A stretch of DNA of 64,000 bases from Bacteroidia bacterium. GTDB lineage: Bacteria; Bacteroidota; Bacteroidia; Flavobacteriales; Flavobacteriaceae. Below are positions 3,721-57,856 of the stretch, piece by piece (positions within the stretch are counted from its first letter, which is position 1; the number at the start of each line of letters is the position of its first letter). The translations under genes were made by a program, and so were the position numbers. The DNA is taken from contig JAUIEK010000009.1 of assembly GCA_030428865.1 (NCBI GenBank), forward strand, positions 4,876 to 68,875, read 5' to 3'. The notes under the pieces are model-generated. The model ran no database searches. It saw only the letters and a list, made by a program, of their open reading frames with translations, and was not told where the DNA came from.

Positions 3721-3751
3721 CACCTGTAAATAAATCATTTACAGGTGTTTT
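3721..3751. terminator. bidirectional intrinsic terminator between the small-gene array and ssrA
   Basis: Perfect 10-bp stem, cacctgtaaa (3721-3730) with tttacaggtg (3738-3747). It is followed by TTTT on the plus strand and by tttgaatttt on the minus strand. It lies directly after the tmRNA 3-prime end. Confidence 0.6.
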
Positions 3752-3753
3752 CG

Positions 3754-4150
3754 TGGAGACGCCGAGAATCGAACTCGGGTCCAAACAAGCAGTTAAAATG
3801 CTTTCTACATACTTAGTTTCTGTATCATTTTCGTCTAATAGCCAACCAAAAACAATCTACTACTAGCTTAGCTTCTTAATTTTCAAAATACAATCAAAGC
3901 AGTTGCATTTCTAGAGTTACTTTCACGATGTTTCTGGTCAGAACGCGGTAAATCAACGCTTTCTAGAAACATTTAGCTTGTGTATCTTATACACCGAGGC
4001 CTGTACCTTACTATAAATTCGGGTAATTAAGCAGCTAAAGCGTAATTATTTTCGCCGTTTAATTGTTTGAAATAAGTTTTACAAGTAGTCATTTCACTCC
4101 TTGGTATGCTTACACTCTCACTGTTCTTGCTGTCAAAACCAGTCGTCCCC
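3754..4150 (-). ncRNA. ssrA: tmRNA (transfer-messenger RNA)
   Basis: Read on the minus strand, the 5-prime end is GGGGACGACTGGTTTTGACAGC. The 3-prime end has a tRNA-like T-arm, ACCCGAGTTCGATTCTCGGCGTCTCCA. The acceptor stem GGGGACG/CGTCTCC contains a G3:U70 wobble, the alanine identity element. An internal tag reading frame GGC GAA AAT AAT TAC GCT TTA GCT GCT TAA encodes GENNYALAA-stop at 4027-4056. Total length is about 397 nt. Confidence 0.9.
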
Positions 4151-6112: not shown

Positions 6113-7069
6113 TTAAATGACTTGAACTTTAAATGACACAGCAAGTTCGTTATTAACAAAAAGATACAATTCTGTGTGAGTAGTTGGAGCAGGAATTGTC
6201 AAAAGTGAATTGATGGATTTTTTAATTTGTGGTTTTTTAGCGTATTGATCATTTTGGAAAACATAAAAAATAGATTCTTTTTCGGTAAGTCCTTTTACCT
6301 CGAGTTCTATAGATTTTCCCTTTTGTACTTTGATGATACCGGAAGTTGCTTTTGAAAAAGAGAGTCCTTTTCCTAAAAATGAATCAGTATAAATCGGTTG
6401 ATTATAGAAAGATTTCTTGCTATCAATTTTCCATAAAATTTGCCATTTTCTATCTATTGGAAAATGTGTTTTACCAATTAACTCAATAGGAATGTTAAAA
6501 TAATAAGCTCGAAAGCTTTTCTCCCACTTATTATTCAGTACATATCCAGCGGCCCAAGTAGCATCGATAATCATCCACTTGTTATTAATTTTTACAATAT
6601 TCCAGGCATGATTTGTTGCTGTTTCTGGTTTCCCAATACTCAGCGGAGAATTTCTGATATTTCCTTTTAAAACTTCGCATTCTATTTGCATTAAATCACA
6701 CAGTTTTTTTAGAGATTGCGCATATTCCTCACAAACACCTCTTTTATTTTTAAAAGCATCCGAAACAATTTTGTCTTTAATTTCTTTGACTTTTTGTAAT
6801 CTTTCAGCTTCATCAGTATAGCTAAAGCGAATAGACCTGTTTTTTTGATAAGAGTTGTCTAAACTATATGATATATTGTTTGTTAGCCATTTAAAGGCAG
6901 CTCGTACTTTATGGATATCTGAAGTAAAGTCTTTTTGAATCTGTTTAGCTAAATCTTCAACATTAGAATAGCGAGGGTACGAACTCACTTTTGCATCAAC
7001 CTTATCAAAAGATTGAGCTGAAATATGTTGGGAAATTATGATGGAGAGAAAAAACAAGAGTTTTTTCAT
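6113..7069 (-). CDS. secreted transglutaminase-like domain protein
   Basis: Cys-His-Asp pattern typical of the transglutaminase-like core: RGVCEEYAQ ... NHAWNIV ... IIDATWA. I place the start at the MKKLLFFLSIIISQHISAQ signal peptide; the longest ORF extends to 7135. Confidence 0.7.
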   Translation of the reverse strand: MKKLLFFLSIIISQHISAQSFDKVDAKVSSYPRYSNVEDLAKQIQKDFTSDIHKVRAAFKWLTNNISYSLDNSYQKNRSIRFSYTDEAERLQKVKEIKDKIVSDAFKNKRGVCEEYAQSLKKLCDLMQIECEVLKGNIRNSPLSIGKPETATNHAWNIVKINNKWMIIDATWAAGYVLNNKWEKSFRAYYFNIPIELIGKTHFPIDRKWQILWKIDSKKSFYNQPIYTDSFLGKGLSFSKATSGIIKVQKGKSIELEVKGLTEKESIFYVFQNDQYAKKPQIKKSINSLLTIPAPTTHTELYLFVNNELAVSFKVQVI

Positions 7070-7148
7070 AGCGTTTCGATTAAAAATTATAGAAACGAAT
7101 GGTTTATTAGGTCTCTCATTTTTAATCATTATCAAGATGTGCTTTTAT

Positions 7149-10210: not shown

Positions 10211-11562
10211 AAATTCATTTTATTGCAATTGGTGGTAGTGCCATGCATAACTTAGCGTTGGCATTGCAAAGTAAAGGCTATCAAATTACAGGAAGTGATG
10301 ATACTATTCATGAACCCTCAAAAAGTAGATTACAAAAGAAAGGATTACTACCTGAATCTTTTGGTTGGTATCCTGATAAAATTACTGCAGATTTAGATGC
10401 TGTTATTCTAGGAATGCATGCCAAATCTGATAACCCAGAACTACTTAAAGCACAAAAGTTAGGACTGAAAATTTACTCGTATCCTGAATTTTTATTTGAA
10501 CAATCTAAAGATAAAACACGTGTAGTTATTGGAGGTTCTCATGGGAAAACAACTATTACTTCTATGATTTTGCATGTGATGCAGTATCACGAAAGAGAAG
10601 TCGATTTTATGGTTGGAGCGCAATTAGATGGTTTTGATACAATGGTTCATCTTACAGAAAAAAATGAGTTCATGGTTTTAGAAGGTGATGAATATTTGAG
10701 TTCACCAATAGATAGACGCCCTAAGTTTCATTTATACCAACCAAATATTGCTTTAATTAGCGGAATTGCATGGGATCATATTAACGTATTTCCTACTTAT
10801 GAAAACTATGTAGAACAATTTAAAATCTTTGTTGATTCATTAACAAATGGTGGAATTTTAGTTTATAATGAAGAAGATGAAGAAGTAAAACAGTTAGTAG
10901 AGAAATCAGAAAATCCGATCAAAAAATATCCTTATAAAACACCTAGCCACAAAATAGAAAATGGTATTACTTATCTTGAAACTTCAGAAGGAAATTTGCC
11001 TCTAGAGATTTTTGGAGAACACAATCTGCAGAATTTAGCAGGAGCAAAATGGATATGCCAGCATATGGGTGTAGATGAAGATGATTTCTATGAAGCTATA
11101 GCTTCTTTTAAAGGAGCTAATAAGCGTCTTGAAAAGATTGCAGAGAATTCACTAACCACAATTTTTAAAGATTTTGCGCACAGTCCCAGTAAAGTAATTG
11201 CTACAACTAGAGCAATAAAAGAGCAATATTCGAATAGAAAAGTAATTGCTTGTTTAGAATTACATACCTACAGTAGTTTAAACGCTTCCTTTTTGCAGGA
11301 ATATAAAGGAGCTTTGGACACTGCAGATGAAGCAATTGTTTTTTACTCGCCAGATGCTGTAGCTATTAAGCAATTAGAAGAGGTTAGCAGAGATCAAATT
11401 TTAAAGGCATTTACAAGAGAAGATTTAGAAGTGTTTATTAATCCAAAAGAATTTGAAAATTTTTTGTTGAATCAGTCTTTAGAAAATAGTGTTCTGTTGT
11501 TAATGAGCTCAGGAAATTATGGAGGATTAAACTTTGAGAAACTTATTTCTTTGGTTTTATAA
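10207..11562 (+). CDS. mpl: UDP-N-acetylmuramate:L-alanyl-gamma-D-glutamyl-meso-diaminopimelate ligase (Mur ligase family, Mpl-type)
   Basis: N-terminus MKIHFIAIGGSAMHNLALAL..GSDD and Mur ligase P-loop GGSHGKTTITSM. 451 aa. Confidence 0.7.
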   Translation: MKIHFIAIGGSAMHNLALALQSKGYQITGSDDTIHEPSKSRLQKKGLLPESFGWYPDKITADLDAVILGMHAKSDNPELLKAQKLGLKIYSYPEFLFEQSKDKTRVVIGGSHGKTTITSMILHVMQYHEREVDFMVGAQLDGFDTMVHLTEKNEFMVLEGDEYLSSPIDRRPKFHLYQPNIALISGIAWDHINVFPTYENYVEQFKIFVDSLTNGGILVYNEEDEEVKQLVEKSENPIKKYPYKTPSHKIENGITYLETSEGNLPLEIFGEHNLQNLAGAKWICQHMGVDEDDFYEAIASFKGANKRLEKIAENSLTTIFKDFAHSPSKVIATTRAIKEQYSNRKVIACLELHTYSSLNASFLQEYKGALDTADEAIVFYSPDAVAIKQLEEVSRDQILKAFTREDLEVFINPKEFENFLLNQSLENSVLLLMSSGNYGGLNFEKLISLVL

Positions 11563-12646
11563 TTCTTAACTGAATTAGTTTTTCTCTTCTCCAGTTTTTA
11601 TCCATAAAACGGCGATACATCCAAATTCTATTTTCTTTTCTAGAAAATGACTGACGTATAAATTTAACTCTCTTTTTAATAGCTATCTTTCTTTTCCAAG
11701 TCTTAAAGTACTTTGCACGGAATTTATCATCGTGTAGTATTCTGTTGTAAATTTCTAAGTATTTTTTAGTTTCATCTTTTTCTTGAAATAACAAACTATT
11801 AGAGTTGAAAGTTTGGTTGCATACGGCTAAAAAGTTATTAATAGGATTGAATAATTTGTCAAAATGTTCAATAGCTTTTAATGAATCTGTTTTTTGACTT
11901 AACAAGAACACATCATATCCGTTTCGTAAAGACATGTTATTAAAATACTGCCCATCGTCATTAACTTGTTTTGCTAAAATGGCTAAACACAATTGATTAG
12001 CATAACTCATAAAAGTAATTCCATCACTCGAAATAGTGTTTTGAGAAACAGTATCAAAATTGAATTCCGTTTCATATCCTTCAATCAATAATTCTTTATG
12101 AATCTCTACGGCTGCAATTTTAGAAGAATGATGGAGCCTTGGTAAGTGTTTGAATTGTGGAAAATGATAACTTTCTTTTGAGACATTTTGATAGTTATTA
12201 CTTACTAGTAATTCAGCTGTTTTTTCATACTTCTTTTCAGCGACGATAAAATCAATATCACCCACCATTCGCTCACTAATATCATTATAAATTCCTTGTA
12301 AAATAAGTGCTGAACCCTTAACGAAAATAGGATTGATATTATGTTGTTTTAGTAATAAATTGATTTCCTTTACTTGCCCAATGATTTGCATATTTCTATC
12401 ACGATTTAGTGAAGAAATATGTTCCATGTATGCCACAAGTTCGTTAGGTAAGAGAGATAAAAGATTCTCTTTTTTTAGGTTATGATACAGTGCAGGGAAA
12501 ACGAAGTGTCCCGTACTAACTTTAACTATGTTATCCCAATCAACTTTATCTTCTTTTATGTTTTGCTTGATCCAATCAAGATTCTCTTTTTCATAAGAAA
12601 TAGTTAAGCATCTAGCTATAAAAAACAAGGCTTCTTTATAAGTCAT
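11543..12646 (-). CDS. Pol-beta-superfamily nucleotidyltransferase (uncharacterised NTP_transf_5-like family)
   Basis: The hG[GS]-x(n)-D-h-D-h signature is present as KGSALILQGIYNDISERMVGDIDFIV. Overall it resembles the nucleotidyltransferases found beside HPr-kinase-like genes in peptide-modification loci. The start overlaps the upstream gene by 11 nt. Confidence 0.65.
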   Translation of the reverse strand: MTYKEALFFIARCLTISYEKENLDWIKQNIKEDKVDWDNIVKVSTGHFVFPALYHNLKKENLLSLLPNELVAYMEHISSLNRDRNMQIIGQVKEINLLLKQHNINPIFVKGSALILQGIYNDISERMVGDIDFIVAEKKYEKTAELLVSNNYQNVSKESYHFPQFKHLPRLHHSSKIAAVEIHKELLIEGYETEFNFDTVSQNTISSDGITFMSYANQLCLAILAKQVNDDGQYFNNMSLRNGYDVFLLSQKTDSLKAIEHFDKLFNPINNFLAVCNQTFNSNSLLFQEKDETKKYLEIYNRILHDDKFRAKYFKTWKRKIAIKKRVKFIRQSFSRKENRIWMYRRFMDKNWRREKLIQLRIIKPKK

Positions 12647-13766
12647 TCGAGAATAATTTAGATACTAAATCAATCATTTCTTGATTATCCGAATAAGTTA
12701 AGGAATAACAGGTAGTTGATTGAAACCAATCTAAAAAAGTTTCTACGTTTTCGGATTCTTTAGATATCCAAGAATCAGGCAGAAGTTTATGAAAAGCATC
12801 TACTTTAGAAATTTTTTTAAGTGCGGTCTTACTCTCTTTAGCGTATTTAATAAAAACTAAGATGCTACAATTTTCAGTTTTTTTATAGTTCTGATGACTA
12901 GGAGGTAAGTAACGAACAGTTTTGTCAAGAGGAGCAAAATAGTACTCTTTTTCTGTTTTTATTTGAGGAAAATAAGTAGAAAGTAAATTCCAGCTATTTT
13001 TCTTTAAACTAATAGCTGATGGAAAGGTGTAGACTTTTTGGTCATTTCCCATGGGGACAAAATCATCAGCTATGCAGTGAAAATTGTGTGCCTGTAATAG
13101 GGCTAAAGAAGTACTCTTCCCATCTCCAGAATCTCCTAAAAATAATATTGATTGTTCTCCATTACTTACTGCAGAGGCATGAAAAACGCCTAGCCATTCA
13201 TCTTCTGGTTTGTTGTAGATTTCTTCTACAACAAGCATATTTACTTTTCCTTGTAGAAAATGTATATCTCTTCTTTTCCAAACGTCATAAAATTTTTCAT
13301 TTCTATATAAAAACGTATCCTCTTTTTTAGAGAAAAGCTGAAAATGTACATGAATAGCTTCTTGTTTTTCCACTTCTAAATAAGAAAATTTAGGGTGGAT
13401 TAATTCGAACTCGAAATAAGATTGATATTCAAATAAAAAAACCGTGTTATTAATTCTGTAATATTTTTTGTATTCATAATCCCGATCACTCTCATAATTT
13501 TTTAAATGATGTTTCTTTTCAGGTTGAAATTTTATATTGGGCTCTACAATATTTTTGTTGACGTCTTTTATAAAGCTGATAGCATCCTCAACAGGTATAT
13601 TTAATTCATTTGCTAGTGATTTTCCTATAAAATCAATTTCTTTTTTTTGAATTAAAGCGATTACAATTTCAGCAGTTTTATTTTCTAAAACAAGATATTG
13701 ATTAGCGGGAGCCATCCAAAGAACAGTTTTATCTTCTATAGGTTTTGTAAGAAATTGAATGCTCAT
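12636..13766 (-). CDS. PqqD-like (RRE) domain fused to an HPr kinase/phosphorylase-like P-loop kinase domain
   Basis: The N-terminal ~75 aa (VLWMAPANQYLVLENKTAEIVIALIQKKEIDFIGKSLANELNIPVEDAISFIKDV) follow the PqqD/RRE pattern. The C-terminal half has the HprK-type Walker A and flanks: FHASAVSNGEQSILFLGDSGDGKSTSLALLQAHNFHCIADDFV. Confidence 0.7.
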   Translation of the reverse strand: MSIQFLTKPIEDKTVLWMAPANQYLVLENKTAEIVIALIQKKEIDFIGKSLANELNIPVEDAISFIKDVNKNIVEPNIKFQPEKKHHLKNYESDRDYEYKKYYRINNTVFLFEYQSYFEFELIHPKFSYLEVEKQEAIHVHFQLFSKKEDTFLYRNEKFYDVWKRRDIHFLQGKVNMLVVEEIYNKPEDEWLGVFHASAVSNGEQSILFLGDSGDGKSTSLALLQAHNFHCIADDFVPMGNDQKVYTFPSAISLKKNSWNLLSTYFPQIKTEKEYYFAPLDKTVRYLPPSHQNYKKTENCSILVFIKYAKESKTALKKISKVDAFHKLLPDSWISKESENVETFLDWFQSTTCYSLTYSDNQEMIDLVSKLFSNDL

Positions 13767-13775
13767 AATTTGTTT

Positions 13776-14996
13776 TTAAAATTTTTTACCTGTAAATAAG
13801 GACTTTATTTTTAACCAATACACTTGGAATATTCGTTTAACAATTTTATTGAATTTAAAATTAAATAATGTATTAATTAAATCATCAATTGTTGTTTTTT
13901 GATGAAAAAATCGAATTCTATTTTCAATTTGTTCATCCGTATATTTACTATACATTCGCTTGCTAGAGACCTCAGAAATTTGCCACTTTAACAAGTTATT
14001 TTTACGCCATCTTTTTCGATATTTTTGGAAATCGGCACTTCCATTTGATAGAAACTGATCAATATATTCACAAGCCATTTCTGCACTTTGCATAGCATAT
14101 CGAATACCTTCACCACCTAGTGGGTTTACAGCAGAAATTGCATCACCAACCGCAACTACTCGATCTTTGTAAAAAGTATCTTGTATACTAGGGCTATAAC
14201 GCAACGTTCCGCCATGTACATCTAGTAGTTTGTAATTTTCTGTTTTTATATACTCTTTAATAATCTTTTCAGTAAGCTTTTTAGTGGTTTTAGTTGTTTT
14301 CTCCTGATCTTTTGAAGCGATATGAATTTTTCCTGAACCAACTTTTAGAACCTTATTTTCCATTGGAAAAATCCATGAATAACCTTTTAGAGCCCATTTA
14401 TGTCCTAGAAAAAAGACCAATCTATCTTTATACTGATCATAAGTTTCTTGATTGACCTCAATTTGATATTCTATTCCGCTTCCTAAAACCATTTCGGGCT
14501 GATCATTTTTAGAGTCGTACATTACTTTTCGCAAAGGGCCTGTTGCGTCAACTACGAGTTTAGATTTGAATTGTATGTTTTTTGATGTTTCGCTATCAAC
14601 TAATTCAACAATAACGCCATTACTTAGTACCTCTTTCTTAACATACCGATGTCCCATTAAAACTGTAGCTCCTTTTTCTTGAGCTTCATCAGCTAAAAAT
14701 TGTCGCAATCTGCCAAAATCTAAAACAGCACCTTTTGTTTCATTTCCTTTCCATATATATTCTTTTTCTGAACATTGAATAGAAAGATCTTTCCAATACG
14801 AACCAATGACATTATCAGGTAAATTAAATTCTTTTAACGGAGCCAACGTCATACCCGCACTAGAGAAGTTATTGTCTTGAAAACTAGCGTAACGTTCTAC
14901 TAATAATACAGAATATCCTTTTTTACTTAAGTTTCTAGCTGTTTGACCTCCAGCAGGCCCACCTCCTATGATAACAACATCATACTCTACAGTCAT
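13776..14996 (-). CDS. FAD-dependent oxidoreductase (geranylgeranyl reductase / group A flavoprotein family)
   Basis: Dinucleotide-binding motif YDVVIIGGGPAGG at the N-terminus. GYSWIFPM and the GDAISAVNPLGGEGI motif are also present. I place the start at MTVEYD; the longest ORF runs to 15047. Confidence 0.8.
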   Translation of the reverse strand: MTVEYDVVIIGGGPAGGQTARNLSKKGYSVLLVERYASFQDNNFSSAGMTLAPLKEFNLPDNVIGSYWKDLSIQCSEKEYIWKGNETKGAVLDFGRLRQFLADEAQEKGATVLMGHRYVKKEVLSNGVIVELVDSETSKNIQFKSKLVVDATGPLRKVMYDSKNDQPEMVLGSGIEYQIEVNQETYDQYKDRLVFFLGHKWALKGYSWIFPMENKVLKVGSGKIHIASKDQEKTTKTTKKLTEKIIKEYIKTENYKLLDVHGGTLRYSPSIQDTFYKDRVVAVGDAISAVNPLGGEGIRYAMQSAEMACEYIDQFLSNGSADFQKYRKRWRKNNLLKWQISEVSSKRMYSKYTDEQIENRIRFFHQKTTIDDLINTLFNFKFNKIVKRIFQVYWLKIKSLFTGKKF

Positions 14997-15061
14997 TAAT
15001 ACTTTAATTTCTAAAGTGAGTAAAGATAGTTTTTCAAGACGATTCAATAAAAATTAAAAAT

Positions 15062-15097
15062 AAAAAAAACTCACTTTTATAAAGTGAGTTTTTTTTT
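15062..15097 (-). terminator. intrinsic terminator/attenuator hairpin between small peptide gene 1 and the flavoenzyme gene
   Basis: 8-bp stem, ctcacttt (15070-15077) with aaagtgag (15081-15088). An A8 run and a T9 run flank it, so the stem is followed by a U-run on either strand. Confidence 0.6.
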
Positions 15098-15121
15098 AAA
15101 TTCTGAATAGAAAAAACAATA

Positions 15122-15277
15122 TCAGAAACCTCCCCCTTGCCCTGATCCTGCTTGTGCGGTCTTAGGATTTAATAAAAAATAGGTTCCTAATGCAGTTAAA
15201 GCGGCGTATTTTCCATAATTACCTATTTTTTTTATGGCATCCTTACGAGTGATCTCGTTTTTTTGTGTATTTTTCAT
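15122..15277 (-). CDS. small precursor-like peptide 1 (51 aa): MKNTQKNEITRKDAIKKIGNYGKYAALTALGTYFLLNPKTAQAGSGQGGGF
   Basis: Translated by hand; it falls below the ORF-track length cutoff. ATG at 15275-15277, TGA at 15122-15124. It is a paralog of the ORF at 15502-15672, and the differences between the two copies are mostly synonymous. Confidence 0.6.
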   Translation of the reverse strand: MKNTQKNEITRKDAIKKIGNYGKYAALTALGTYFLLNPKTAQAGSGQGGGF

Positions 15278-15501
15278 GTTTTAATAGGCTTTAATTAAAA
15301 TTTTACTTGTTAAAAAAACATTCATAGTCGAGTTATAAAAACACTTAACTATTGTATTAGATTCCTAACTTTGCTACTGTTTTAAAGTTTGCTTTTTATT
15401 TTATCACAACTATAGGAATTTTCCATGATTATTTGATAAAATCCCTACAACGGTACAAATATAATTAAATTATTTAATATTTGATAAACTATTAAGTGTT
15501 T

Positions 15502-15672
15502 TTAGAAACCACTTCCTAGTCCCGAGGGAGTGGAACCCGCCTGAGCTGTTTTAGGGTTTAATAATAGATAAGTTCCTAAAGCGGTTAAGGTTGCATATTT
15601 TCCGTAGTTTCCTATTTTTTTTAAAGCTTCTTTACGAGTTATATCTTTGTTAGATTTTGATTGATCTTTCAT
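15502..15672 (-). CDS. small precursor-like peptide 2 (56 aa): MKDQSKSNKDITRKEALKKIGNYGKYATLTALGTYLLLNPKTAQAGSTPSGLGSGF
   Basis: Translated by hand. ATG at 15670-15672, TAA at 15502-15504. The start lies about 18 nt downstream of the stop of the 990-aa gene. It shares a 37-residue block with peptide 1. Confidence 0.6.
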   Translation of the reverse strand: MKDQSKSNKDITRKEALKKIGNYGKYATLTALGTYLLLNPKTAQAGSTPSGLGSGF

Positions 15673-15689
15673 AATAATATTAAATGTTG

Positions 15690-18662
15690 TTATTCAATAA
15701 TAATTTTCTTGTTCACAGACTTACCAGCAGTATCTAACTTTATAATGTAAATACCTGTATCTATGTTAGGAATACTTATATCATTTACAGAATTGCCTTC
15801 AAAAGAAATATTAAATACTTGTTGTCCAATAGTATTATACAAGCTGATATTAGTCGTTCCATTTTGTAAACCAACAACTCTTATGTTATTACTGCTGGTT
15901 TGGTAAATACTTAAATTATTTGTATCTAAATCATCCCCTGAACTTAAAACTCCTTGGTTTACGTGAAGATAAAAGCGACCGATACCATTTGTGTTTACAT
16001 TTATATTAGTATCATATTTTTCAACTTCGTTTAAATTGATAAACGTTCCTGCTTCTTTATCTTCTAGATATATATTATATCCATTAGGAAGGTTTGCTAT
16101 ATTTATAGAAAAGCTAATTTTGCCAGAATTATTAACATCAACACCTATAGGAATTATCATATTCTCATAATCAGAGTTTGGAAGCGATTGAATACCTAAC
16201 CTCTTTCCTTCTCCATCAGCAACAGCATGTGTGTAGAATGAAAAACTTTCATTTACACCAGAAAAGATAGAACTATCGTATCCATTATCAAATCCTGTTG
16301 TTGCTCCGTCAATAAAATAAATCTTAGTACTTCTTGTTATAGATCCATTTGTGGCAATCAATTCAATTTTTGCTTTTTCGGTTTCAGTATTATTTCTTTG
16401 AAATGAATCTGTTTGATGTGACTGCATTGCCTCAGTTATACTTAATGTATTTGCTCCATTGGAGTTCACAAAAAAACCTTGGCCTGGTGCAATATAGAAT
16501 GCTTCTGATGCTTGATTTATTTGATCGTAAGAAGAGGTTGATTGATTCCAGCACCAAAGAGTAGCTTCGGTAAGTAAATCAGAATCAATATCGTTTAATC
16601 TTAGGATATTATTTATGCCATCAGCACTATCATTAACAGCAATGTAAGATGGGTAAGGATTTCCTATGGCATTAAATCCGTTTATGTTTGAGGTAATGGA
16701 GATACCAATATCTGAAGTAGGGATAGTTCCTGTAAAAGAAATATTACCAGCTGAAGCTAATTTTACAGCATAACCTGTTCCAGAATTTACTGCTCCAGTA
16801 GAAGCTGCTGTAGAGTAATTCCAGTTAGTTCCATCATTAGCATAAGTAGAAATACCAATGTTACTACCAGTACCTGTATCAAAAGTATGATTTGCAATTA
16901 AATCTTCTATTGTTTCTCCAACAACAGGAGAAGAAACCAAATACCAGTTATTTGTAGCTAATACTCTTGTATATGTTACATTACCAGATGCAGTACCAGA
17001 AACTCTTAAAGAACCTCCACTAGCAATAGATAAGCCATCTGGTTCTGTTATCATAATGTCGTTGACTTCTGCACCAGTAGAAGCGCTAATAATTGGAGCA
17101 TTTATAACATCTGGAATAATCGCGTTTAAAGAACTCGTTGGTATACCATTGCTCCAGTTGCCTAAAGTTGCCCAATCTGTACCACTTGAACCCGTCCAAG
17201 TTGTTGCTAAAGAGATGTCAAAATCTTCGATTCTCCAAAGTTCTGTTGATCCACCACCTGTTCCCGTTGAAGTATAACGAAAAGCAAAAACCACAGCAGT
17301 ACCAGCAATACCAGATACATCTACATTACCAGAACTTGTACTTGTTTGTGAATCTGATGCTGGCCAAGTAGGACTTAAACTACTATTCCAACTAGTTGTT
17401 GATGGATCTCCTGTATAATTTGTTGTGTATAAAAATTCAATTTGTGGGCTAGAAGCATCAGCAAATCGAGTCCAACTGTTAAACGTTAAAACCTCACCTG
17501 TTTGAGCATCCATGTTAAATGATGGGCTGATTAAATAATCATCAGCAGCGCCTGAAGAATCAAAAGCATTCGCTTCAAAGTATCCGCTACCACAAGTCCA
17601 TTCCAGTTCTGCGCCTACAGTAGCTACTGTCCAATTTTGAGTGTTACAATCAGAAAAATCTTCATTGTAAGGAATAGAAGCTATAGGAAGCTCATCATCA
17701 GTTATTGTTACTGTATGTTGACTAGTTCCTAAATCTGCAGTGCCAGAAGAAACAGTAATGTTTAGAACTACTGTTTCATTATCACTATCAGCATCATTAT
17801 TGATATCTAGAGAGATGTTTTGAGTTCCGTTTGCATTGAAAACTAAAGAAGTTGTATTTAAAGTATAATCTCCACCTTCAGCAGTACTAGAACCATCAAC
17901 CGTAATACTTATAGTAACTGGAGCATCATGATTTGTAAATGTAACTGGGATATTTGCGCTAAAAGTGATATCTGTTTCGTTTTCAAAACTTGAGGCTGAA
18001 TCAAAGCTCACGGTAGGATTAGAAGCATCTGTAACAACAAGTGCTGTGGTATCGAAAGTTTGACCTGACCCAGAAGTAGTCCATTGAGCTGAATTATAAA
18101 TATTAATCAAATGCCCTGTTTTATTATTGCTAGTTCTTACTCCTGAATAAACACCATTGTCTCCGCCAAAATAAACAGCATTAGTACCTAAAGTTAACCC
18201 TGTACCTGTTAATGTTCCAGCATCACCACTATCTTCCCCCGCAAACCCTAAAATAGTATATGTTCCTGTATTGTATACGTTAGTAGAGGTTTGATAAATA
18301 TAAACACCATCACCACTATTACTTAAAGTGATATTACCTGCTCTTTGGGTTACAACTCCTCCATTCGACATAGTATCAGAATTGGCATCGTAAGTAAAAA
18401 CAGTGCCTGCAGTTATTGAAGGTGTTACCCACTCGTAAAAACCTTCTCCAGAGTTGAAAGATGAGCCATTCCATTCATCATCCGTGATGAATACTGATTG
18501 ACCAGAGGGTATGTCTGCTAATGCAACTAGAAGGATTTCTTCATTATCTACACCCACACCAATGATTGCTATATCTCCAGCAGATAAAGTTTGAGCATTT
18601 AAGTTGATGTTGCATAAAAACATCAATGGTAGTACGAATTTTAAAAAGTAATTTTTTTTCAT
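15690..18662 (-). CDS. large secreted surface protein with a T9SS C-terminal sorting domain
   Basis: Signal peptide ending NAQT. Calx-beta-like segment (GGDYTLNTTSLVFNANGTQNISLDINNDADSDNETVVLNI). Ser/Thr/Gly/Asn-rich beta-repeat regions. The C-terminal ~80 aa (ISLYNTIGQQV...GIYIIKLDTAGKSVNKKIIIE) are typical of Por/T9SS CTDs. Confidence 0.85.
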   Translation of the reverse strand: MKKNYFLKFVLPLMFLCNINLNAQTLSAGDIAIIGVGVDNEEILLVALADIPSGQSVFITDDEWNGSSFNSGEGFYEWVTPSITAGTVFTYDANSDTMSNGGVVTQRAGNITLSNSGDGVYIYQTSTNVYNTGTYTILGFAGEDSGDAGTLTGTGLTLGTNAVYFGGDNGVYSGVRTSNNKTGHLINIYNSAQWTTSGSGQTFDTTALVVTDASNPTVSFDSASSFENETDITFSANIPVTFTNHDAPVTISITVDGSSTAEGGDYTLNTTSLVFNANGTQNISLDINNDADSDNETVVLNITVSSGTADLGTSQHTVTITDDELPIASIPYNEDFSDCNTQNWTVATVGAELEWTCGSGYFEANAFDSSGAADDYLISPSFNMDAQTGEVLTFNSWTRFADASSPQIEFLYTTNYTGDPSTTSWNSSLSPTWPASDSQTSTSSGNVDVSGIAGTAVVFAFRYTSTGTGGGSTELWRIEDFDISLATTWTGSSGTDWATLGNWSNGIPTSSLNAIIPDVINAPIISASTGAEVNDIMITEPDGLSIASGGSLRVSGTASGNVTYTRVLATNNWYLVSSPVVGETIEDLIANHTFDTGTGSNIGISTYANDGTNWNYSTAASTGAVNSGTGYAVKLASAGNISFTGTIPTSDIGISITSNINGFNAIGNPYPSYIAVNDSADGINNILRLNDIDSDLLTEATLWCWNQSTSSYDQINQASEAFYIAPGQGFFVNSNGANTLSITEAMQSHQTDSFQRNNTETEKAKIELIATNGSITRSTKIYFIDGATTGFDNGYDSSIFSGVNESFSFYTHAVADGEGKRLGIQSLPNSDYENMIIPIGVDVNNSGKISFSINIANLPNGYNIYLEDKEAGTFINLNEVEKYDTNINVNTNGIGRFYLHVNQGVLSSGDDLDTNNLSIYQTSSNNIRVVGLQNGTTNISLYNTIGQQVFNISFEGNSVNDISIPNIDTGIYIIKLDTAGKSVNKKIIIE

Positions 18663-18710
18663 AATTTTTTATTGCTAATAATTTATTCCCCTAAAAAAGT
18701 GGTCAAACTT

Positions 18711-18740
18711 AAAAAAAAGTATTTGCCCATAAAATGGGCA
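18711..18740 (-). terminator. candidate intrinsic terminator downstream of trkH
   Basis: 7-bp stem, tgcccat (18724-18730) with atgggca (18734-18740). On the minus strand a T8 run (complement of 18711-18718) follows a few nt later. Confidence 0.45.
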
Positions 18741-57805: not shown

Positions 57806-57856
57806 GATAGGAATCACGATTATCGAAGGAGGAAGCCTTAATTCATAATCCCTATC
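57806..57856 (+). promoter_or_regulatory. structured leader upstream of rpsD (candidate S4 autoregulatory leader)
   Basis: gatagg (57806-57811) pairs with cctatc (57851-57856). This encloses an inner aagg/cctt helix around a purine-rich loop (aggaggaag). It lies in the 80-nt rpsK-rpsD spacer. Confidence 0.35.

Follow-up and report, generated by a model that had tools for sequence, protein, structure and literature searches.

Linear polyphosphorylated peptides (LPP) have been described from Bacillota, where LppK polyphosphorylates Ser3 of the core, directly after a signal-peptidase-I-type cleavage site, and where the unphosphorylated precursor is cleaved poorly (Nat Commun 2026, PMC13381572). 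In the same pathway, LppN belongs to the NTP_transf_5 family and LppB is a PqqD-type RRE (PMC13381572). Paeninodin kinases and the nucleotidyltransferase of pseudomycoidin have been described as well (PMC8498205), and in pseudomycoidin the enzyme homologous to the NTP_transf_5 protein discussed below adds hexoses. The locus considered here lies in a 64,000-nucleotide stretch of a marine flavobacterial contig (JAUIEK010000009.1, assembly GCA_030428865.1), referred to as the window. An earlier note on this DNA had read five of its genes as a peptide maturation unit of an architecture known from no characterised system. That interpretation is partly supported: its domain assignments stand, while the limits of the unit, the proposed sequence hallmark of the peptides and, given the existence of the LPP family (PMC13381572), the novelty of the architecture do not.

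Putative Precursor Peptides and Their Adhesin Partner

The five genes, NT, KIN, FAD, pepB and pepA, are indeed all located on the minus strand. pepA (15502-15672, minus) encodes a putative precursor peptide of 56 aa, whose conserved, signal-peptide-like leader ends in NPKTAQA and is followed by an 11-aa core, GSTPSGLGSGF, with Ser47 as the family-invariant Ser at position +2. pepB (15122-15277, minus) encodes a paralogue of 51 aa with the core GSGQGGGF and is a peptide-only duplicate, having no adhesin gene of its own. Judged from the sequences, these small ORFs are real genes rather than chance ORFs. The two differ by 18 synonymous versus 4 non-synonymous codon differences over a 36-codon block, their homologues form 1257 clusters in the protein database, and at least 574 metagenome stretches match them. 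Among 114 distinct DNA copies, the entropy at the three codon positions amounts to 0.42, 0.14 and 1.17 bits, the values at positions 1 and 2 being biased low by the selection of this set through a protein motif. The pepA/pepB family is the only conserved family of small ORFs nearby.

The leader follows the pattern ...(S/T)R-x-x-A(L/I)...G-x-x-A-A-L-T-A...L-N-P-x-K-A-x-A, and its residues hardly vary between genera whose Mpl and TrkH share about 77-80% identity, so that the leader is better conserved than the flanking housekeeping proteins. The leader is built like a signal peptide, its n-region being basic, its hydrophobic region short and its A-x-A site in keeping with the -3/-1 rule, and export of the peptides is plausible; in the Tat-like motif of the leader, the second basic residue is not conserved (R-G in L074). 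The core, too, is conserved across genera. The divergent Gly/Ser-rich tails pointed out earlier are a property of pepA and pepB, which carry atypical versions of the close-family motif x-S-(x)-P-x-x-P-G-x-G-F, and not of the close family as such. Within the close clade, Ser+2 is present in all 112 peptides and the C-terminal GF in 108 of them. The G-x-G-F ending once taken as a hallmark is restricted to this clade; the deep invariants of the family are the leader, the A/V-x-A site and, as the invariant feature of the core, the Ser two residues after that site.

The gene coupled most tightly to the peptides was left out of the interval delimited earlier. It lies immediately upstream (15690-18662, minus) and encodes a RemA/RemZ-like surface protein of 990 aa secreted by the T9SS. 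A signal peptide is followed by variable domains (Calx-beta, choice-of-anchor J), a conserved RemA/RemZ-like module of about 430 aa (residues ~480-910) and a C-terminal T9SS type A sorting domain (Pfam and NCBIfam matches). The partner proteins of other loci have only the C-terminal ~500 aa in common. A profile of the module matches RemA (8gl6_D, E 3.6e-31) and RemZ (8gl8_D, E 1.4e-18) of F. johnsoniae. The peptide gene follows a RemA-like gene in 63 of the 67 peptide-anchored cases, mostly after a gap of 11-30 nt, which in the window measures 17 nt.

A pattern scan for -7 boxes found a Bacteroidetes-type match, TAAGTTTG (18704-18711, minus), which precedes the start codon of the adhesin gene by 49 nt, and a second, TATATTTG (15456-15463, minus), between pepA and pepB. 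Both are matches to the consensus only, the first being a candidate promoter of the adhesin-pepA unit and the second a possible separate promoter for pepB. The hairpin with a U-run reported earlier was found at 15062-15096 (minus, read from 15096 to 15062), with 16 pairs, a 3-nt loop and a T-rich tail, which places it between the peptide and the enzyme genes. Of 46 related loci, 41 likewise have a terminator-like hairpin and then a T-run after the last peptide gene and ahead of the kinase gene; the stem sequences differ among them. A terminator at this place would yield more precursor than enzyme; it fits separate, unrelated transcription units equally well.

Candidate Modifying Enzymes

RRE domains are binders of peptide leaders. 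KIN (12636-13766, minus; 376 aa) is a fusion of such a domain with an HprK-like kinase, and a peptide substrate is therefore to be expected. The N-terminal domain (PqqD-like, beta3-alpha3; residues 1-80, 13527-13766, minus), a predicted leader-binding module, is identified as an RRE by its predicted fold and by PqqD-family HMM matches in homologues. In the AF2 model its pLDDT is ~91, and the best Foldseek matches in the PDB are the TbiB1-leader complexes 5v1u and 5v1v (TM 0.71-0.73), with 6jx3, ThcOx, PqqD 5sxy, McbB, CteB and MibB among the further top matches. The PqqD/RRE assignment of the earlier note thus holds through fold and homologues, while the Pfam search of the window protein itself did not detect the domain. 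Among 15 KIN homologues, 4 match PqqD of Pfam, and NCBIfam models match as WgkC (11), lasso PqqD (6) and TIGR04353 (2). The remainder of KIN (residues ~81-376; 12636-13526, minus) is a P-loop kinase of the HprK/PEPCK fold, as had been proposed. TIGR04352 (HprK_rel_A) matches residues 194-371 (E 9.5e-16), the motifs GDSGxGKS and C-x-ADDFVP are invariant in the alignment, the Walker A/P-loop and ADD motifs align to HprK/P of L. casei, and Foldseek matches this part to PEPCK and HprK/P.

The coordinates bear out the tight packing of the enzyme genes, with an 11-nt overlap between KIN and NT and 9 nt between FAD and KIN. NT (11543-12646, minus; 367 aa) is a Pol-beta-fold nucleotidyltransferase, a call that the profile search upheld (PF14907, NTP_transf_5, E 3.7e-36). 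FAD (13776-15047, minus) encodes 423 aa if read from a TTG, the ATG at 14996 being the probable start. Its assignment to the geranylgeranyl-reductase family of FAD-dependent oxidoreductases agrees with matches to FAD_binding_3 and GGR_cat (Pfam), and TIGR02032 scores 157.7 bits, just below the cutoff of 158.8; QhpG, LodB and GoxB are weak matches. This flavoprotein is an accessory, lineage-specific gene. It is found in only 5 of 81 loci (the window, L004, L013, L033 and L077), at 66-71% identity, and in none of 50 peptide-anchored metagenome loci, which speaks against the five genes forming a unit.

Distribution and Gene Neighborhoods

Of 80 kinase-anchored loci, 54 have a peptide gene directly upstream of the kinase; about 20 kinase loci lack a peptide in the neighborhood. 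In most of the 80 loci, the gene after that of the kinase encodes an NT homologue, and the two genes usually overlap. The kinase-NTase pair stands beside mpl, convergent to it, in 72/80 loci and adjoins trkH in 46/80, and the 54 adjacencies should therefore be regarded as largely one inherited arrangement rather than as independent events. In many genomes the adhesin-peptide block is gone from the mpl position and the pair is still there, and the kinase is only 45-50% identical where the flanking proteins reach 77-80%. Most copies of the peptide gene do not adjoin the enzymes: of 50 peptide copies for which the downstream sequence is long enough, only 8 have a kinase within 2 kb. In GCA_964036605.1, the kinase and NTase occur without a peptide (L174) and an adhesin-peptide pair is located elsewhere (L083), which is counted here as support for action in trans.

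The cassette of adhesin, in some cases peptide, kinase and NTase recurs with different flanks at 26-34% kinase identity, and four contexts were seen with a RemA-like adhesin beside RRE-kinase genes. At L166 (kinase 29% identical) the order is adhesin, 59-aa peptide and kinase; at L173 (34%) two adhesin-peptide pairs and a third adhesin precede kinase and NTase; and at L172 (27%) a peptide precedes the kinase. The deep-branching L169 has adhesin, kinase and an NT homologue after it, and no peptide, so that the role of true partner or substrate could fall to the adhesin or to something else.

Proposed Pathway and Alternative Explanations

The reading we prefer, with a probability of about 0.55, is that the locus represents LPP-like phosphorylation of peptides in a Bacteroidota version, one that works partly in trans and is linked in function to RemA-like adhesins. 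pepA and pepB would be translated as precursors of 51-56 aa, pepA being co-transcribed with the adhesin gene, and the RRE of KIN would bind the highly conserved leader. By parallel with LppK acting on core Ser3, the kinase is proposed to phosphorylate the invariant Ser two residues past the A/V-x-A site, possibly several times; the NTP_transf_5 enzyme may then extend the phosphate, as with the hexoses of pseudomycoidin, and the flavoprotein may make some further addition or change in the lineage of the window. Because the leader has signal-peptide anatomy, export and leader removal would probably rely on general machinery (type I signal peptidase), and a phospho(glyco)peptide of ~8-11 residues would be released into the cell envelope. 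One kinase-NTase pair may serve several precursor genes scattered in the genome, each following its own RemA-like adhesin gene, and since precursor genes follow adhesin genes, the product most likely acts with the adhesins in gliding or surface adhesion and not as an antibiotic.

Alternatively, the peptides could be ordinary micro-proteins that are exported to the envelope, act for the adhesin, e.g., as anchor, pilot or assembly factor, and are left unmodified by the neighboring enzymes, the RRE-kinase and NTase having another target (adhesin, other peptide or glycan) and lying nearby only because the adhesin is that target. We consider this rather unlikely, even though the peptides are coupled to the adhesin far more strongly than to the kinase, L169 combines adhesin and enzymes without a peptide, a terminator separates peptide from enzyme genes and the leader resembles a signal peptide in keeping with the -3/-1 rule. 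RREs bind peptide leaders and the loci offer no other candidate leader; this leader is conserved far above the needs of a generic signal peptide, the invariant Ser by the predicted cleavage site mirrors a proven phosphosite of LPP, and in three contexts that diverge deeply, peptide genes stand between those of adhesin and kinase.

Two further explanations carry less weight than phosphorylation of the peptides. The close packing of the flavoprotein gene against KIN, its good conservation where present and the membership of peptide- or protein-modifying enzymes (QhpG, LodB, GoxB) in its superfamily could indicate that the five genes are a RiPP cluster complete in itself, with the flavoprotein as core enzyme and a novel linear product, redox-modified, phosphorylated or nucleotidylated, e.g., an antimicrobial. 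This is improbable, as 76 of 81 loci and all 50 metagenome loci lack the gene, cores at flavoprotein loci (ASPEDPGTGF) are the same as those without it, the core is conserved across genera where antimicrobial RiPPs usually diversify theirs, and neither an immunity or exporter gene nor a PADLOC match was found. Very improbable is a general envelope or housekeeping function of the kinase-NTase pair with merely inherited synteny to adhesin and peptide: the frequent position near mpl and trkH and the persistence of the pair after local loss of the block would suit it, but the same arrangement recurs with unrelated flanks, the kinase, unlike a housekeeping enzyme, evolves fast, and it carries an RRE.

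Comparison With Known Systems

The combination of RRE, HprK-like kinase and NTP_transf_5 enzyme is also known as a module of paeninodin-type lasso peptides, and the RRE of KIN matches leader-bound lasso B1 RREs in fold. As the earlier note had stated, the surroundings of the locus encode no lasso cyclase, radical-SAM enzyme, YcaO or LanM. The leader has no [Y/W]xxP motif, which the RREs of lasso and LPP systems use. The likeness to LPP lies in the same three components, which act on linear peptides there and are predicted to do so here, with NT and LppN in one Pfam family and the invariant Ser placed by the predicted cleavage site. In contrast to LPP, with its dedicated LppS/LppD pair, general export and leader removal are probable here, and nearly every peptide gene is joined to a gene for a secreted surface protein whose C-terminal module resembles RemA and RemZ, the gliding adhesins of F. 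johnsoniae.

Organization of the locus

The five co-directional minus-strand genes described in the earlier note are borne out by the ORF coordinates and by the hairpin that divides them. Two small precursor-peptide genes, pepA (15502-15672, 56 aa) and pepB (15122-15277, 51 aa), are followed by a hairpin of 16 pairs with a T-run (15096-15062, minus strand) and then by genes for a flavoprotein (13776-15047), a fusion of an RRE domain with an HprK-like kinase (12636-13766) and a nucleotidyltransferase (NTase, 11543-12646), with a gap of 9 nt between the flavoprotein and kinase genes and an overlap of 11 nt between those for kinase and NTase. Outside the interval considered in that note, a minus-strand gene for a 990-aa RemA-like T9SS adhesin (15690-18662) ends 17 nt upstream of pepA. 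Matches to the Bacteroidetes-type -7 promoter box (TAnnTTTG) are located on the minus strand at 18704-18711, 49 nt ahead of the start codon of the adhesin gene, and at 15456-15463, between pepA and pepB; none was found in front of the flavoprotein, kinase and NTase genes, so that these enzymes may be expressed by transcription reading through the 15096-15062 hairpin. In 41 of 46 loci, a terminator-like hairpin separates the kinase from the last peptide gene, with differing stem sequences. The sigma-70 promoter scan performed no better than on shuffled sequence, Rfam and tRNA scans gave no match within the locus, and no PADLOC defence-system model matched.

Elsewhere in the window, a tmRNA gene is found on the minus strand at 3751-4150 (Rfam RF00023, 146 bits; ARAGORN tag peptide GENNYALAA), and an S4-Flavobacteria ribosomal protein leader (RF03141) on the plus strand at 57818-57850. 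The latter is enclosed by a long plus-strand stretch (~42-62 kb) with strong positive GC and AT skew, presumably made up of ribosomal protein operons.

The peptide family

The small ORFs have the sequence signature of genuine genes. Over 36 codons, pepA and pepB differ at 18 codons synonymously and at only 4 non-synonymously, and variation is concentrated in the third codon position (1.17 bits, vs 0.42 and 0.14 at the others, although the copies were picked by protein motif, which biases positions 1 and 2 low). Homologues form 1257 clusters in the protein collection, and at least 574 metagenome stretches match.

The leader is near-invariant, ...(I/L)(S/T)RKEA(I/L)KKIGNYGKYAALTALGTY(L/M)ILNP(K/Q)KAQA, with a consensus that may also be written ITRKEAIKKIGNYGKYAALTALGTYxILNPxKAQA and that lacks YxxP. 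Downstream of it lies a conserved core, x-S-(x)-P-x-x-P-G-x-G-F, of 10-11 residues; the window cores, GSTPSGLGSGF and GSGQGGGF, contain no Asp or Glu. The serine at position +2 is present in 112/112 peptides. The expectation that the small ORFs end in G-x-G-F holds for these close relatives, 108 of 112 of which end in GF, but not at deep divergence: when the window peptides are aligned with distant ones, the invariant features are the leader Arg, several further leader positions, Ala-1 (with A/V at -3) and Ser+2, and the terminal GF is lost. The possibility of a strict twin-arginine (Tat) signal was given less weight, since the residues in question are R-K, and R-G in locus L074. Several precursors are unusually long, namely a 143-aa one with a normal leader and Ser+2 and a Cys-rich tail with a KYKSKY repeat (L074, 3611-4051), one with a normal leader and Ser+2 and a long Ser-rich tail (L065, 7675-7902), and peptides of 87-90 aa in L173; evidently, certain lineages allow the core to be lengthened at its C-terminus. 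Our literature search on the peptide motif returned nothing relevant.

Enzymes of the cassette

The domain assignments made from the sequence alone (an NTP_transf_5 enzyme, a GGR-family flavoprotein and an RRE joined to an HprK-like kinase) proved correct once profiles, folds and homologues were considered together, with one qualification concerning the RRE. The NTase is a clear NTP_transf_5 protein (PF14907, E 3.7e-36), and the flavoprotein belongs to the geranylgeranyl-reductase family (TIGR02032, 157.7 bits vs a cutoff of 158.8), with weaker matches to QhpG, LodB and GoxB, which are peptide- or protein-modifying flavoenzymes. For the kinase part, the best NCBIfam match is TIGR04352, "HprK-related kinase A" (E 9.5e-16, residues 194-371), at 57.7 bits against an equivalog cutoff of 200 bits and over profile positions 98-280 only, with just the C-terminal half covered. 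Its invariant GDSGxGKS and ADDFVP motifs align to the corresponding P-loop and signature motifs in L. casei HprK/P, and its AlphaFold2 model (pLDDT 90) has a fold similar to PEPCK and HprK/P.

The qualification is that Pfam PqqD, expected in the fusion protein, was detected neither in the window protein nor in its first 93 residues, so that the RRE was recognized through homologues and fold. Among 15 homologues of the domain, Pfam PqqD is called in 4, and the NCBIfam models WgkC, lasso PqqD and TIGR04353 in 11, 6 and 2, respectively. Matches to the kinase fold prevailed in the whole-chain Foldseek search, and a separate model was therefore built for the N-terminal domain (pLDDT ~91). Its first 80 residues are predicted to form three strands and three helices (DSSP elements E5-10, E13-18, E23-28, H29-39, H44-55, H59-78), which in the model gives the three-stranded sheet and three-helix bundle of an RRE-type (PqqD-like) fold. 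The top Foldseek matches are TbiB1-leader complexes (5v1u and 5v1v, TM 0.71-0.73, probability 1.00); a further lasso B1 RRE in complex with its leader peptide, 6jx3, is among the best PDB matches, followed by ThcOx, PqqD, McbB, CteB and MibB. The RRE sequence profile gave only spurious weak matches against PDB sequences.

The kinase comprises >1100 clusters at 90% identity, and 239 representative clusters at 50% identity with E <= 1e-30; the family is thus large, and it is entirely unannotated. A distant kinase homologue (L166, 4902-6029) has a weak precomputed Pfam match to PF27840 "ScmC", a family associated with a radical-SAM peptide-modification cassette; the match points to a possible relationship with a further family of HprK-like proteins.

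Coupling to RemA-like adhesins

An unexpected finding was the coupling of the peptides to adhesins. In the peptide-anchored metagenome sample, the peptide gene follows a gene for a large T9SS-sorted protein in 63 of 67 cases. Gap lengths, taken from a set of 63 such gene pairs, are 11-30 nt in most. The partner proteins have only their C-terminal ~500 residues in common. A ~430-aa module before the C-terminal sorting domain corresponds to residues 891-1334 of F. johnsoniae RemA (module profile, E 3.6e-31) and to residues 617-1013 of its homologue RemZ (E 1.4e-18), and the sorting domain matches TIGR04183 (E 4.6e-08), so that the partner protein combines, by profile, the pre-CTD module and T9SS sorting domain typical of the RemA family. 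It was only the profile that reached RemA and RemZ; a single-sequence phmmer search of the C-module against the PDB gave no match.

Adhesin-peptide pairs occur as tandem duplicates in several loci and are also found far from the kinase: among the 50 peptides for which sufficient sequence was available downstream, only 8 have the kinase within 2 kb. No peptide gene lies downstream of a RemA-like gene in Flavobacterium sp. P21, and hence the coupling is not a general property of RemA homologues; the search for the remA locus of F. johnsoniae UW101 returned a fragment as its sole match.

Association of the peptide with the kinase and nucleotidyltransferase

Neighbourhood mining was based on 80 genome loci anchored on the kinase, whose named records are all Flavobacteriaceae (Polaribacter, Tenacibaculum, Lutibacter, Asprobacillus and MAGs). 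The proposed co-occurrence of enzymes and small ORFs held in part: the peptide adjoins the kinase in 54/80 loci, and about 20 of the 80 have kinase and NTase with no peptide nearby. In 72 loci kinase and NTase lie opposite mpl in convergent orientation, and in 46 they have trkH nearby; with this shared flank, the 54 adjacencies are mostly one inherited arrangement. Distant relatives recovered by exhaustive search retain the fusion architecture down to 26% identity in contexts with unrelated flanks and provide independent evidence for the link between peptide and enzymes. At 34% kinase identity, L173 has two adhesin-peptide pairs, a third adhesin, kinase and NTase; at 29%, L166 has a T9SS protein with a RemA-like module, a 59-aa peptide and the kinase; at 27%, L172 has peptide and kinase. 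The deepest-branching cassette (L169, 4311-9233, 26%) consists of a T9SS gene with a RemA-like module and, 11 nt further, kinase and NTase, flanked by FtsX/BacA on one side and purD/accD/lepA on the other; no peptide ORF is detectable there by the family HMM, and this is the strongest observation against the peptide as an obligatory substrate. In GCA_964036605.1, kinase, NTase and mpl lie together with no adjoining peptide (L174) and an adhesin-peptide pair is found on another contig (L083), a layout consistent with a single pair of enzymes that serves scattered precursors in trans.

Three tandem NTP_transf_5 paralogues follow the kinase gene in L049 (2682-5884), and in L040 and L047 the NTase genes are fragmented and a truncated extra peptide remnant, MTQYATLTALVTYLILSPQKEQAFSIETP, is present; these features suggest that the cassette has been duplicated and has decayed locally.

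Proposed function and alternatives

Added to the observed gene set, domain folds, conservation pattern and genomic coupling, published work on the linear polyphosphorylated peptides (LPPs) of Bacillota (PMC13381572) and on pseudomycoidin (PMC8498205) allows a mechanism to be proposed. The RRE would bind the leader and the fused HprK-like kinase would phosphorylate Ser+2, perhaps repeatedly, after which the NTP_transf_5 enzyme would extend the phosphate, the GGR-like flavoprotein contributing a lineage-specific added step. The signal-peptide-like leader would direct export and be cut by type I signal peptidase at the A/V-x-A site, and the resulting small phospho(glyco)peptide would act together with RemA-like adhesins. 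The chemistry of the cassette is probably familiar; Ser47 of pepA, the invariant Ser+2, is predicted to gain +80 Da units in a kinase-dependent manner.

As for the purpose of this chemistry, the most far-reaching reading, to which we assign a probability of roughly 0.2, is a RiPP-type pathway that serves to assemble the cell surface and not as a means of antibiosis. For each RemA-like adhesin, a single copy of a short exported peptide would be made, a shared RRE-kinase and NTase would phospho-(glyco)sylate the cleavage-adjacent Ser, and the modified peptide would be the physical partner of the adhesin, as an envelope anchor, as an acceptor of the adhesin C-terminus after T9SS processing or, for a lectin-like adhesin, as its cognate phosphoglycan ligand. 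The main rival of the proposed mechanism, possible though doubtful, takes the micro-protein to be an accessory factor of the adhesin left untouched by the enzymes, which would have the adhesin or another molecule as their true partner. The peptide-free L169 cassette, the weak adjacency of peptide to kinase and the terminator between peptide and enzyme genes agree with it; the invariant Ser, the presence of an RRE and the unusual conservation of the leader count against it.

The earlier note had proposed a five-gene unit with the flavoprotein as a full member, and here its observation is confirmed whereas its interpretation is supported in part only. Across the window and the 80 kinase-anchored loci, the flavoprotein is found only in the window and in L004, L013, L033 and L077, and in none of 50 peptide-anchored metagenome loci; it is an accessory gene, and a flavoprotein-centred model is improbable, surviving only as a lineage-specific embellishment. 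The flavoprotein is 66-71% identical among its five loci and the adjacent kinase only 45-48%, which suggests that the flavoprotein is either under much stronger constraint or has recently spread laterally. In L077 the order is adhesin, flavoprotein, kinase, and no peptide gene lies between them. Pure synteny or housekeeping, by which the genes would merely share a neighbourhood, could draw on the shared mpl/trkH flank but is at odds with the distant cassettes and their different flanks, and we consider it very unlikely.

The surface-assembly reading, if true, would add a hitherto unknown accessory layer to the biology of T9SS adhesins and to gliding or adhesion in marine Flavobacteriia. The hosts include Polaribacter, abundant and associated with marine blooms, and Tenacibaculum, with its fish pathogens, for which adhesion and gliding matter in ecology and in virulence.

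Comparison with known systems

RemA and RemZ (PMC10994853, in which Shrivastava et al. 2012 is cited) share with the partner protein the module before the sorting domain and the T9SS sorting domain itself, and differ from it in their N-terminal domains. Both are gliding adhesins of F. johnsoniae and T9SS type A substrates (PMC10994853). The cited RemA literature describes no link of RemA to small peptides or kinases, and the coupling of a peptide cassette to T9SS adhesins has no counterpart in the cited LPP, lasso or RemA literature.

Lasso peptides of the paeninodin/pseudomycoidin type are phosphorylated or phosphoglycosylated: an HprK-like kinase phosphorylates a precursor Ser in a leader-dependent manner, and in pseudomycoidin a homologous transferase adds hexoses to the phosphoserine (PMC8498205). 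The locus shares with them an HprK-like kinase, an NTP_transf_5-type transferase and an RRE fold nearest to lasso B1. As the earlier note had remarked, there is neither an adjacent lasso cyclase nor a leader protease: the Asn-synthetase-like macrolactam cyclase (C) and the transglutaminase-like B2 protease are both absent from the locus. The window cores, moreover, have no Asp or Glu at positions 7-9, and with cyclase, protease and acidic ring-forming residue all missing a lasso-peptide reading was rejected; the target Ser would also lie at the N-terminal end of the core, unlike the C-terminal end in the paeninodin type. Lasso B2 leader peptidases are also transglutaminase-like, and a gene of that kind with a signal peptide lies at 6113-7135 on the minus strand (Pfam Transglut_core, E 1.1e-11), but as a syntenic flank beyond kdsA (12/80 loci) that is absent from distant cassettes it was rejected as a leader peptidase.

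The uncharacterised genomic signature HPr-rel-A (TIGR04352/TIGR04353) likewise pairs a PqqD-like domain with an HprK-like kinase; here the two are fused, and the TIGR04352 score stays below its cutoff. The HPr-rel-A system belongs to Proteobacteria and has HprK-related kinase B as a second kinase. Our literature search on HPr-rel-A and TIGR04352 found nothing relevant.

The closest counterpart is the LPP cluster (lppA-K-B-S-D-N) of Bacillota (Popov et al., Nat Commun 2026; PMC13381572), which combines an RRE, an HprK-like kinase and an NTP_transf_5 enzyme, contrary to the earlier view that no characterised system has this architecture. LppK polyphosphorylates core Ser3, a homologue of signal peptidase I, acting poorly on unphosphorylated precursor, cuts off the leader, and LppN is an NTP_transf_5 protein and putative NTP transferase, its product not yet known (PMC13381572). 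Common to both are a linear precursor with no macrocyclase, the PqqD-type RRE with its kinase and NTP_transf_5 enzyme, a proven (LPP) or likely (Ser+2) target Ser at the start of the core, leader removal at a signal-peptidase-I-type site, predicted here, and a genomic tie to cell-surface functions, through capsule loci in LPP and surface adhesins here. The locus thus appears to work like an LPP system, yet it is not a member of the LPP family as defined, because the RRE is fused to the kinase and no discrete gene corresponds to LppB; the SipW-like LppS (a type I signal peptidase of the archaeal kind) and the MsbA-like exporter LppD are missing; the leader is signal-peptide-like, without the YxxPxVLxHQxIxFETxxS motif; the cores are short (8-11 aa) and conserved, in contrast to the variable C-termini of LPP precursors of 35-200 aa; and the host phylum is Bacteroidota, whereas LPPs are, according to their authors, restricted to Bacillota (PMC13381572). 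LppS and LppD are not among the locus neighbours (Mur ligase, ion channel, M28 peptidase, KdsA, TrkH and TrkA), nor are they present in the distant loci L166, L169 and L173. The precursor genes also differ in being multi-copy and scattered, each attached to a T9SS adhesin gene.

We therefore regard the locus as a representative of a large, unannotated Bacteroidota family of LPP-like, putative peptide-phosphorylation cassettes tied genetically to RemA-like T9SS adhesins. The attachment to adhesins offers a possible and testable biological context for LPP and paeninodin chemistry, the role of which is not known. If the proposal is true, the leader-guided (poly)phosphorylation of Ser in linear peptides, together with their tailoring by NTP_transf_5 enzymes, would extend from Bacillota into Bacteroidota, in an architecture that differs by its fused RRE-kinase, its signal-peptide-like leader and its lack of a dedicated peptidase or exporter.
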